Of a DNA stretch of 64,000 nucleotides, positions 40,559-42,811 are shown piece by piece (within the stretch, counting starts at the first letter, position 1; each line of letters begins with the position of its first letter). Position numbers and translations under genes: made by a program. Where the stretch lies: the NCBI GenBank assembly GCA_964402565.1, contig CAYOCJ010000002.1:79392-143391 (forward strand), written 5' to 3'. Below the pieces are notes generated by a model that saw only the letters and a program-made list of their open reading frames with translations, had not been told where the DNA came from and did no database searches. This DNA is from an uncultured Gammaproteobacteria bacterium. GTDB taxonomy: Bacteria > Patescibacteriota > Patescibacteriia > UBA1558 > 2-01-FULL-52-15.

Positions 40559-41035
40559 TTAAGATAAGAACGTATCGAGCAAATCACACGCTTCTGCCAA
40601 AGTGTCGTATCCGGCAATGCGGACATGCGGGTACCGTTCGCTGTTCATGCCGCGGACCATGGCCGAAACAGTCTCTCGAATCGAATTATGATAGAGGCAC
40701 AGTATGGGCAAGTGTCGTCGAGTGCTGGGTAAATGGCGTGTCGTAGCATATTCAATCTCGCGCCCTACGCCGGTGGAGGCGCCGCTCACCTCAGCTATAA
40801 AATGCGACGCCTGATCGATCCATGCTATATCTTGCGATTCGATATCAGTGACGGTGAGCTTCTCATACGGCTTTCCTATTTTTTCTGCGAGCAAAGCATT
40901 TGGATTATCTTTGATGATATGTTCAGACAGCACAACGACTCCCTTGTTCTGGATGTGCTCTATCATTCCTTTTACGAAATGGCCGAAGTTTCTGTTGCCC
41001 CGGATAGCCCCTGCGAAATATACAGCGGTTTTCAT
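40559..41035 (-). CDS. 2'-deoxynucleoside 5'-phosphate N-hydrolase (DNPH1/Rcl)-like, nucleoside 2-deoxyribosyltransferase superfamily.
   Basis: VYFAGAIRGNRN...VLSEHI...FIAEVSGASTGVGREIEYA...LPILCLY...VSAMVRG, colinear with DNPH1 (VYFCGSIRGGRE...VLTEHV...VVAEVTQPSLGVGYELGRA...PILCLF). Confidence 0.65.
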   Translation of the reverse strand: MKTAVYFAGAIRGNRNFGHFVKGMIEHIQNKGVVVLSEHIIKDNPNALLAEKIGKPYEKLTVTDIESQDIAWIDQASHFIAEVSGASTGVGREIEYATTRHLPSTRRHLPILCLYHNSIRETVSAMVRGMNSERYPHVRIAGYDTLAEACDLLDTFLS

Positions 41036-41338
41036 TTAGGATTCCTCAAGGATAATTCTTTTTTTGAAAGCCCCGCGCTTATCGCGTTTCTTGGTTTGGA
41101 TATCCTGAAGTGCTTCACGTGTGAACTCCTTGTATGCAATCACCGCATCGACCACTTCCATAATGTCTGCTAATTCTTCTATGCTTTCTGCTTCAGAGAA
41201 TTCAGCGACTTCTTCAGCGAGCTTCTCTTTTAATTTCATCCAATACTCGGCGTCATCTGCAGTATGGATAACAGCATTGCCGCCTTTTGCAGCAATAATC
41301 TCGGGTATATTGTCTCGGACAAGCTTATTGTATTTCAT
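41036..41338 (-). CDS. MazG/HisE-like nucleoside triphosphate pyrophosphohydrolase (small all-alpha NTP-PPase).
   Basis: [15 protein letters not shown]...[14 protein letters not shown], typical of the MazG-like NTP pyrophosphatase family. Stop/start abutting the DNPH1-like gene. Confidence 0.65.
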
Positions 41339-41350
41339 AGCATCAGTATA

Positions 41351-41884
41351 CTACTTTTTCGGTGCCGTTTCGTTTATCCTCGCGGTATTTTCTTCGATCG
41401 TATCCAAGCCCATCGCTTCGCGCCGTTCAGCAACATGCTCAGGGTCTTCGATAGGACGCGGTACATATTTTCCCTCGCCCGTAGGATCATAAAATTGCGT
41501 TCCGTATTTTTGCATGCTGCCCTCATTCACTAAGGTACGGTCAGTGAGGTAGGCAATATCCCCTTTGGCTACCTCGGTTTCATCGGCACTTTGCATGAGC
41601 TCCAGGCAGTATTTTTGAAAAACTATGTCATGATCCGCATGCTGCACCAGGAGCCAGGCATCGGAAGAAGCTGTAGCGCCGACTTTTGCAATAGTTGGCC
41701 AGCCGATTTCGGCAACAATTTCTTTGAGGCGGGCAGTATTACGATGATCAACAGAAGGGTCCCAGTATTTGCGCGTTTCATCTGCTTCAGCAGTATGCCG
41801 CATCTCCTGATCCGTGCGGGCCATTTCAGTAAGCTCATTTGCAATATGCGGGAATTGGATCTGTTCTGGGGATTTTTCGTTCAT
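41351..41884 (-). CDS. Hypothetical protein, first gene of the putative three-gene nucleotide-processing operon.
   Basis: ORF 12 nt upstream of the MazG-like gene; no known domain. Confidence 0.4.
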   Translation of the reverse strand: MNEKSPEQIQFPHIANELTEMARTDQEMRHTAEADETRKYWDPSVDHRNTARLKEIVAEIGWPTIAKVGATASSDAWLLVQHADHDIVFQKYCLELMQSADETEVAKGDIAYLTDRTLVNEGSMQKYGTQFYDPTGEGKYVPRPIEDPEHVAERREAMGLDTIEENTARINETAPKK

Positions 41885-41998
41885 ATGGTTATGTTTTCAG
41901 TATAAAGTATCTTTGATGTAAATGTTAGAGCGCCTCTCGGTGGATAGAGAGACGCTCTGGTAATGGCCGACGAGCGGCCGTGTATGCCAGTACGGTCT

Positions 41999-42811
41999 TC
42001 AGTAGAAGCGCTGCCCTCTTCTTCGCCGCTCTTTTTGAAAATCGTACCTGATGGGTTCGAACCTGAATTTGCCTTGTACGGCGTAGCATCCGCGTTGATC
42101 TTCGCCGAGGTTTACGAGTTTGATCGGCAGTTTTTTGAGGCCAGTGTGGGTCACACGGTGCGTGAAAGGACGGGTCGCAAGCTGTTTTTTCGATCGATGG
42201 GTCTCTTTTGCGATGAGCTCGAGCACCCGATCCTTGGTAAAAAGCTCTTTGAGACGCACGGCAAGCTCGGCAAAACCATTCAGCTTGATCTGGCGGATGC
42301 GCTCGGTCGACAGGCCCATGAGGTTGCCAGCCTCTTCGAGGTTTAACGGTTCATCGCCGCCGACGCCGAACAGGAGCTTCAGTACTATTGCATCCCGGGG
42401 GCGCATTTCGCCGAGTTTTTTTTGAACGGCGAGTGAGCGCTCCTTTTCCAGGAATGCGCTTTCCGGATCCTGCGGAGCAGGAAGCATCAGCCGGAGTTGA
42501 TCCGGCATCGCGAGCTCCCCGAATGCAATTTCTTTCGTCATGGAAGTCCGCTCGAACTGATACAGCCAGAGCGGGAAGAGCTTCGACGGCGGAATGCCGC
42601 AGGCCTGCGCAAGCGCGACCGCTGCGGGTCTGAACTGGCCCAGTTTATTGAGCGGGGATTCCTTGAGGCCGAGCAGCCTGCAGGTCAGGTGGTAGCTGAC
42701 CTGGTGATGCGTGCAGAAATCACGGGCAGTTTTCCATTTGTCGTAGATCGCGTGCCACAGCACGTTGTTCCTGGCGCGGGCTTCGATCCGCAATTCTTTC
42801 CGGTGAGCCAC
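41999..42811 (-). CDS. DNA-binding protein with a sigma-70 region-4-type HTH (putative sigma factor or regulator).
   Basis: ...EEAGNLMGLSTERIRQIKLNGFAELAVRLK is a sigma70 r4-like HTH; the N-terminal region is not a clear region 2. Confidence 0.5.
   Translation of the reverse strand: MAHRKELRIEARARNNVLWHAIYDKWKTARDFCTHHQVSYHLTCRLLGLKESPLNKLGQFRPAAVALAQACGIPPSKLFPLWLYQFERTSMTKEIAFGELAMPDQLRLMLPAPQDPESAFLEKERSLAVQKKLGEMRPRDAIVLKLLFGVGGDEPLNLEEAGNLMGLSTERIRQIKLNGFAELAVRLKELFTKDRVLELIAKETHRSKKQLATRPFTHRVTHTGLKKLPIKLVNLGEDQRGCYAVQGKFRFEPIRYDFQKERRRRGQRFY

Follow-up and report, generated by a model that had tools for sequence, protein, structure and literature searches.

On the minus strand of a 64,000-nucleotide (nt) stretch of chromosomal DNA from what is probably a bacterium of the candidate phyla radiation (CPR), here called the window, two small abutting genes encode a MazG-like protein of 100 residues and a DNPH1-like protein of 158 residues. 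We suggest that the two genes form a coupled housekeeping pair for the sanitation and salvage of deoxynucleoside triphosphates (dNTPs), a reading of the sequence to which we give about an even chance. The cluster under study (40559-42811) also holds a gene for a 177-residue protein and a gene for a 270-residue protein with a sigma-70 region 4. Its four open reading frames (ORFs) lie exactly where the original prediction had placed them, with gaps of 0, 12 and 114 nt. That prediction had grouped the first three genes as an operon and, leaving the function open, had named nucleotide-pool sanitation and salvage as well as phage DNA modification and anti-phage nucleotide depletion as roles of such gene pairs. 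The sanitation and salvage reading held up, in keeping with the conserved catalytic residues, the housekeeping context and one natural fusion of the two domains; the three-gene operon and the phage flavour did not. What is left, judged from sequence, is probably a pair of known enzyme kinds that cleans the nucleotide pool in two steps, located beside a member of the widespread DUF6624 family.

The 158-residue protein was compared with proteins of solved structure. A phmmer search matched it to the human and rat DNPH1 structures with E = 2.5e-9, the similarity extending over about 130 residues, and a profile of 27 homologues matched DNPH1 chains only in the PDB (E = 2.8e-17), in line with the label given in the original prediction. 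Residues Y6, D69 and E93 are invariant in the 27 homologues and align with the catalytic Tyr, Asp and Glu of human DNPH1, which we take to be Y24, D80 and E104. Furthermore, the invariant S87 (in GASTGVG) and the nearly invariant S124 (in SAMVRG) align with PSLGVG and SAMIRG of DNPH1. By family, the protein is a DNPH1-type deoxynucleoside monophosphate (dNMP) N-glycosidase, with its activity predicted from these likenesses. It shares the triad, the IRG motif, the phosphate-binding serines and a length of about 150 residues with mammalian DNPH1 (Rcl; 2'-deoxynucleoside 5'-phosphate / 5-hydroxymethyl-dUMP N-hydrolase). Unlike the mammalian enzyme, it comes from a CPR lineage, is about a quarter identical to the human protein (alignment count), and carries 11 extra residues ahead of the catalytic Asp as well as a longer loop behind the catalytic Glu. 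With Pfam PF05014 it scored 23.8 bits, under the gathering cut-off of 28.8; a precomputed match to PF05014 is present in most of its homologues.

The loop after the catalytic Glu (residues 98-109; window 40700-40760) reads TRHLPSTRRHLP, an imperfect direct repeat, where the family consensus is TKxxFGKxxAK. The catalytic residues are untouched, and the loop may be a small local duplication. Elsewhere, DNPH1-like domains occur with N-terminal extensions without assignment (P0328, P0334) and as a tandem duplication (P0343).

The 100-residue protein is a likely, if not proven, member of the all-alpha nucleoside triphosphate (NTP) pyrophosphohydrolase (MazG/HisE) superfamily. Its homologues are 62-73% identical, are nearly all about 100 residues long and carry the JGI label 'predicted house-cleaning noncanonical NTP pyrophosphatase (MazG superfamily)'; the family comprises more than 1600 clusters. 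In an alignment of 20 homologues, the pairs E43/E46 and E55/D58 (with E42 and E54) of an EExxE...EExxD motif show full or almost full conservation. An ExxE...ExxD arrangement supplies the four acidic metal ligands of MazG from Mycobacterium tuberculosis (E119/E122/E138/D141) and of the dUTPase from C. jejuni (PMC10014863). The fold of the protein weakly matches nine MazG/HisE-type structures, among them HisE, MazZ, MazG, iMazG and AF1178. The motif and the weak fold match support the MazG/HisE label of the original prediction, with the curated hidden Markov models (HMMs) below threshold: neither Pfam nor NCBIfam matched the protein at 0.01, and Pfam PRA-PH gave E = 0.88 for it and 0.049 at best among 20 relatives. 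Sequence searches of the PDB were at chance level, both with the single sequence and with a profile (best match HisIE, E = 0.95). As a small helical protein with ExxE...ExxD ligands it resembles the all-alpha NTP pyrophosphohydrolases (MazG, HisE, dimeric dUTPase). It differs from that superfamily in finding no curated HMM at threshold and in its family motifs, an N-terminal KLVRDxIPE and a C-terminal RGxFxxRIILEES. A literature search for COG4997, the COG number of this family, returned incidental mentions only.

Several observations are suggestive of the two genes being a unit. The TAA stop of the MazG-like gene abuts the ATG of the DNPH1-like gene (TAAATG junction, no spacer). In another organism the two domains are joined in one protein, P0187 (256 residues), a natural in-frame fusion of a MazG-like and a DNPH1-like domain; it was the sole protein matching both halves among the best 150 matches from 1.84 billion protein representatives. 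The predicted activities also fit, the product class of the MazG-like enzyme (dNMP) being the substrate class of the DNPH1-like enzyme. Nudix hydrolases are NTP pyrophosphohydrolases of another fold than the MazG-like protein, and a Nudix gene directly adjoins the DNPH1-like gene in the CPR contigs L090/091, L101/103, L112 and L114.

In the proposed mechanism, the 100-residue MazG/HisE-like enzyme would first convert a (d)NTP, possibly a non-canonical or surplus one, to the monophosphate and pyrophosphate. The DNPH1-like enzyme, encoded directly downstream, would then cut the N-glycosidic bond of the dNMP to yield the free base and 2-deoxyribose 5-phosphate. Because this second step cleaves the dNMP, re-phosphorylation of the nucleotide would be blocked, and the base and the sugar phosphate would be open to salvage. 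Overall, a non-canonical or surplus dNTP would be removed irreversibly, and its base and sugar phosphate would be recovered.

A promoter-like box just ahead of the pair is a further point in favour of a unit and bears on how it may be transcribed. The exact 11-mer AGTAGTATACT has three copies in the window, against 0.38 expected (40544-40554, 41345-41355 and 44734-44744), all of them on the minus strand, in short intergenic stretches and just upstream of a start codon. Five genes (minus strand 44740, 43425, 41351 and 32631; plus strand 16456) have GTATACT upstream, spaced from the ATG by exactly 6 nt, and a variant with 7 nt and GTG lies at 43420 on the plus strand. This pattern suggests that the GTATACT box is the -10 box of leaderless mRNAs in the source organism, and that the copy at 41345-41355 drives a separate, possibly leaderless, MazG-like/DNPH1-like transcript. 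The pair would probably be co-transcribed from this box, 6 nt before its first ATG, and the DUF6624 gene would be a co-located upstream gene with a promoter-like element of its own. Consensus scans for terminators and promoters were at background (11 against 9.9 expected; 10 against 8.0) and were not used as evidence, the GTATACT motif having been tested separately.

Two-step systems of this kind are known. DCTPP1, an all-alpha MazG-like dCTP pyrophosphatase, is joined with DCTD and DNPH1 in one human pathway. DCTPP1 feeds DCTD (PMC11183266), and DNPH1 hydrolyses 5-hydroxymethyl-dUMP (PMC12348197). The likeness to the window pair lies in the pairing of an all-alpha NTP pyrophosphatase with a DNPH1-type enzyme and in the logic of cutting the triphosphate first and then destroying the monophosphate. 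It extends to the surroundings of the closest DNPH1-like homologue of the window protein, which also speak for coupling: a dCMP deaminase gene lies on one side and an inorganic pyrophosphatase gene on the other. The scan of window ORFs showed no deaminase. The human DCTPP1 and DNPH1 genes are unlinked, whereas those of the window abut and are fused in one organism. A second parallel comes from phages with Z-genomes (PurZ0), in which DutZ, a dNTP pyrophosphatase, and DmtZ, a DNPH1-like enzyme, are encoded by adjacent or fused genes (PMC12884076). The two-step architecture is that of the window pair and of the P0187 fusion. However, the fold of DutZ is dUTPase-like rather than MazG-like, DmtZ has the additional ability to move deoxyribose 5-phosphate onto 2-aminoadenine, and the phage genes sit in a DNA-modification cluster, whereas the window is a cellular chromosome without PurZ, DpoZ or phage genes.

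The strongest competitor to coupling is that the two genes are independent house-cleaning genes and accidental neighbours, each with its own substrates and no metabolic hand-over, within a fluid set of small nucleotide-hydrolase genes. To assess neighbourhoods, two sets of 80 loci, one from metagenomes and centred on DNPH1-like homologues, the other from genomes of CPR and other phyla and centred on DUF6624 homologues, were searched by tblastn and by HMM searches of six-frame ORFs, with concordant results. The HMM searches also covered 11 IMG/VR loci around MazG-like homologues, and 5 further MazG-like loci were examined. The outcome weighs against a coupled pair. A MazG-like gene was present in 0 of the 80 DNPH1-like loci (flanks examined) and a DNPH1-like gene in 0 of the 5 further MazG-like loci; adjacency is rare, and one fusion is known. 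The 100-residue MazG-like module is moreover promiscuous, being fused elsewhere to ASCH, NUDIX (twice), HIT, a SAM methyltransferase and a putative cyclase (P0356, P0365, P0376, P0400, P0437, P0450). Neighbour clustering gave the DNPH1-like gene no conserved partner beyond small groups, and the surrounding gene order is otherwise not conserved. Finally, both families tend toward the same variable secA...secDF stretch, so that their occasional adjacency is made likelier without any coupling and could be fortuitous. Against independence stand the in-frame fusion of exactly these two domains, the junction without a spacer, the recurrence of a pyrophosphohydrolase of another fold, Nudix, as the immediate DNPH1-like neighbour, and the match of one reaction's product to the other's substrate class. 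We regard independence as rather unlikely on this balance.

The secA...secDF stretch of CPR contigs is a run of small genes, often with an S30AE hibernation factor ahead of secA. Its set includes MazG-like, DNPH1-like, Nudix, UDG, ASCH/DUF3850, SET, HAD, Metallophos_2, PNPOx-like and methyltransferase genes (loci L162, L163-L165, L178-L181; L088, L093/L094, L102, L109, L111). This variable stretch looks like a loose 'house-cleaning island'.

The third gene of the proposed operon was considered next. The 177-residue protein had been called uncharacterised, and it does lack an assigned function; but it belongs to a named family, being on its score a clear member of Pfam DUF6624 (PF20329; 66.1 bits against a cut-off of 27). 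The HMM and structure searches that the original prediction had proposed for it yielded this family and no solved structural relative. Its model has a predicted local distance difference test score (pLDDT) of 92.4 and is all-helical with small hairpins. Invariant polar motifs run through the family (DQxxR, GWP..KVG, AWLLVQHADHD, DR, YGTQ and RR). Searches gave DUF6624 no relative of solved structure and no connection, by fold or by sequence, to a nucleotide enzyme, and none of the models in BFVD is a structural relative. Beyond CPR, myxobacteria, actinomycetes, cyanobacteria, Phycisphaerae and Acidobacteria also have members of the family. Those of CPR bacteria are 45-57% identical to those of Archangium, Vitiosangium, Micromonospora, Plantactinospora and the last three of these groups, an unusually high cross-phylum conservation for a protein without known function or solved relative. 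The single paper found on the family reports co-occurrence with graspetide biosynthetic clusters (PMC13097080), a context not present at the window locus.

The trio is not a conserved operon, and its grouping is not more than chance. In the 80 DUF6624 loci, a DNPH1-like gene was found in none and a MazG-like gene in one (L043), and neighbour clustering gave DUF6624 no conserved partner. No DUF6624 gene was present in the 80 DNPH1-like loci, and the 11 IMG/VR MazG-like loci held neither a DNPH1-like gene (0/11) nor DUF6624 (0/11). All three genes occurred together in the window's own contig alone among the loci scanned. A syntenic relative, represented by L101 and L103, has the order PurN-like, DNPH1-like, Nudix, Nudix, CobO, PilT-like; the MazG-like and DUF6624 genes are both missing there. 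Positions 1399-5517 of L101 (and L103) correspond to 33165-41035 of the window; the DNPH1-like, CobO and PilT-like proteins are 47%, 75% and 83% identical, and the relative also has a GAF protein there. The L101/L103 genes are tight or overlapping, the DNPH1-like gene overlapping Nudix by 4 nt in L101. There, Nudix and CobO come immediately after DNPH1-like; in the window, DNPH1-like and CobO are kept apart by a membrane protein gene, PurD and two pilin-like genes.

These data make a three-gene pathway distinctly unlikely. In such a pathway DUF6624 would be a third enzyme, its substrate being the released base, deoxyribose 5-phosphate or, ahead of the MazG-like step, a modified nucleotide. The shared strand, the 12-nt gap and the many invariant, enzyme-like polar residues of DUF6624 would fit it, as would L043, where the order is DUF3850-like, PNPOx-like, one gene without assignment, Nudix, DUF6624 (after a 5-nt gap), LysE and Nudix, with a MazG-like gene and another Nudix farther on. 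Nudix-box ORFs lie within 600 nt of DUF6624 in 3 of the 80 loci (L037, L043 and L047), against about 1 expected by a rough density estimate. This is a weak hint that DUF6624 is tied to the same house-cleaning-type islands, too little for a role. Against a third pathway member stand the missing conserved neighbour, the promoter-like box that parts DUF6624 from the pair, the PurN-like gene in place of DUF6624 upstream of DNPH1-like in syntenic L101, the spread of the family to myxobacteria, actinomycetes and cyanobacteria with its published mention in graspetide clusters, and the lack of any link to nucleotide enzymes. The DUF6624 gene may instead be a resident of the loose island rather than a member of a pathway. 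In an extended version, a similarly long shot, CPR bacteria would possess a dedicated 'dNTP destruction' route from a MazG-like enzyme to a bacterial DNPH1, sometimes fused, and DUF6624 would add to the same islands a new enzyme without structural precedent that works on a product derived from nucleotides.

The assignment of the 158-residue protein has an alternative of its own. Instead of hydrolysing dNMPs it could transfer deoxyribosyl or deoxyribose-5-phosphate groups (NDT- or DmtZ-like) or act as a ribonucleotide N-glycosidase (MilB/BlsM-like). Its Pfam family carries the name of the nucleoside 2-deoxyribosyltransferases, and DmtZ is a DNPH1-like fold able to transfer deoxyribose 5-phosphate (PMC12884076). 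The same study defines the triad as Tyr, Asp (or Asn) and a Glu nucleophile, with the tyrosine excluding ribo-substrates, and finds that small uncharged residues or Ser in the 5'-pocket mark the monophosphate hydrolases, whereas transferases bind the 5'-OH by Asp or Asn (PMC12884076). In the window protein that tyrosine, Y6, is invariant, and the alignment places serines and small uncharged residues in the 5'-phosphate pocket, as in DNPH1. The family profile matched DNPH1 alone among solved structures, with no NDT, PDT or MilB chain in the PDB at E <= 1. Taken together, these points render a transferase or a ribonucleotide enzyme quite improbable.

The remaining idea was put to searches of phage and defence collections: that the cluster is a DNA-modification module of phage origin or a defence system that depletes nucleotides, with the sigma-region-4 protein as a possible controller. 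PHROGs and PADLOC scans covered seven proteins: PHROGs matched none of the three small proteins, and PADLOC gave them no defence match save a chance-level Csm2 (0.0054) for the MazG-like protein. NCBIfam likewise had no match for any of the three. With all three as tblastn queries, no match was found in 50,697 GenBank phage genomes. Profile scans of IMG/VR returned no DNPH1-like or DUF6624 relative; the MazG-like family was found there on 11 phage-like contigs at 46-49% identity, as is usual for MazG-type enzymes. The phage and integrase context check that had been proposed came out negative, with no such family among 18 flanking ORFs scanned and no anomaly of GC content at the cluster. The window is a cellular chromosome: it contains one 23S and one 5S rRNA gene and ten tRNA genes; PurD, two pilin-like genes and a PilT-like ATPase gene lie on the same strand around the cluster, with a class II ribonucleotide reductase (RNR) about 3 kb upstream, also on that strand; and superoxide dismutase, aquaporin and pyruvate:ferredoxin oxidoreductase lie farther away.

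The sigma-region-4 domain named in the original prediction was recovered in the 270-residue protein (Pfam Sigma70_r4, 1.4e-8, residues 133-183), and both the 169-residue ORF and the DUF4760 protein (Table 1) bear out the membrane protein that it had noted nearby. Sigma region 2 was not detected in the 270-residue protein with Pfam, and its NCBIfam matches were partial, C-terminal sigma-factor ones far below cut-offs. Of the sigma-70-like promoter matches in this region, the best is at 42898-42870, upstream of its gene, in a scan at background level. Local regulation by this protein, which the original prediction had raised, gained no support from the comparison of loci. A phage or defence origin is barely credible: the MazG-like relatives on phage-like contigs, the use of a dNTP pyrophosphatase with a DNPH1-like enzyme by Z-DNA phages (PMC12884076) and a weak match of the 270-residue protein to the C-terminal part of MzaA (39.7 bits in NCBIfam, where the cut-off is 800; 8.5e-5 in PADLOC) are outweighed by the negative searches, by viral MazG-like loci without the other two genes, by the BFVD result for DUF6624, by the chromosomal surroundings and by the generic sigma-region-4 nature of the MzaA match. 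The outcome that the original prediction had named as speaking against itself, a salvage operon conserved across relatives with no phage association and a housekeeping enzyme as third protein, was found in part: there is no phage association, but there is also no conserved salvage operon, and the third protein is no known housekeeping enzyme. The region was also considered as a genomic island, a candidate dropped on the same GC and flanking-ORF results.

The positions of the cluster and of its neighbours are collected in Table 1.

Table 1. Features of the cluster and its surroundings, in window coordinates.
Feature	Position	Strand	Remarks
Nudix hydrolase	35928-36365	-	Pfam NUDIX 1.2e-20
ATP:corrinoid adenosyltransferase CobO	36369-36935	-	Pfam CobA_CobO_BtuR 4.2e-52
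Membrane protein (169 residues)	40007-40516	same as cluster	hydrophobic segments read from its own sequence
DNPH1-like dNMP N-glycosidase, predicted (158 residues)	40559-41035	-	second gene of the pair; phmmer, family profile, conserved residues
MazG/HisE-like (all-alpha) NTP pyrophosphohydrolase candidate (100 residues)	41036-41338	-	first gene of the pair
Promoter-like box AGTAGTATACT	41345-41355	-	6 nt upstream of the MazG-like ATG; overlaps the DUF6624 TAG stop
DUF6624 protein (177 residues)	41351-41884	-	adjacent gene, doubtful member of the unit; Pfam
Sigma-70 region 4 protein (270 residues)	41999-42811	-	upstream neighbour; Pfam
DUF4760 membrane protein	42903-43412	same as cluster	
Class II (B12-dependent) RNR with ATP cone	44932-48723	-	Pfam Ribonuc_red_lgC 1e-125, Ribonuc_red_2_N 8.4e-35, ATP-cone 2.6e-9

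The three small ORFs are well populated with homologues (1185, 86 and 1605 word-index hits), which marks them as real genes. For all three proteins, most homologues with a named source belong to Patescibacteria/CPR metagenome-assembled genomes, so that the source of the window is probably a CPR bacterium too. The nearest database relatives of the source organism are about 50-70% identical. Other features of the window were noted in passing. The adenosylcobalamin-dependent class II RNR is long (1263 residues); it combines an ATP cone and a TSCPD domain with a barrel that was matched in two stretches, and lies about 8 kb from the CobO gene on the same strand. A perfect 12-bp hairpin with 10 G-C pairs at 43982-44008, read as a terminator on both strands, sits between the convergent genes 43434-43967 (plus) and 44152-44727 (minus). 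The 23S rRNA match (11830-14976) spans 3147 nt against a model of 2925 positions, corresponding to about 220 nt of insertions; the 5S gene (15226-15343) follows it, and a 16S gene was not found anywhere in the window.

A literature search on CPR nucleotide salvage with deoxyribose returned nothing or incidental mentions only. DUF6624, widespread, confidently modelled and lacking a structural relative, is a separate and small question. As for the MazG-like/DNPH1-like pair, the practical impact of a coupling would be modest, since neither the two enzyme classes nor the two-step logic is new. If the coupling is true, it would give a first functional handle on two very common, uncharacterised CPR families, the 100-residue MazG-like proteins and the bacterial DNPH1-like proteins. 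It would also mean that the irreversible sanitation logic of a pyrophosphatase followed by an N-glycosidase reaches into the reduced genomes of CPR bacteria, where, since these bacteria rely heavily on salvaged nucleotides, such a route could matter.

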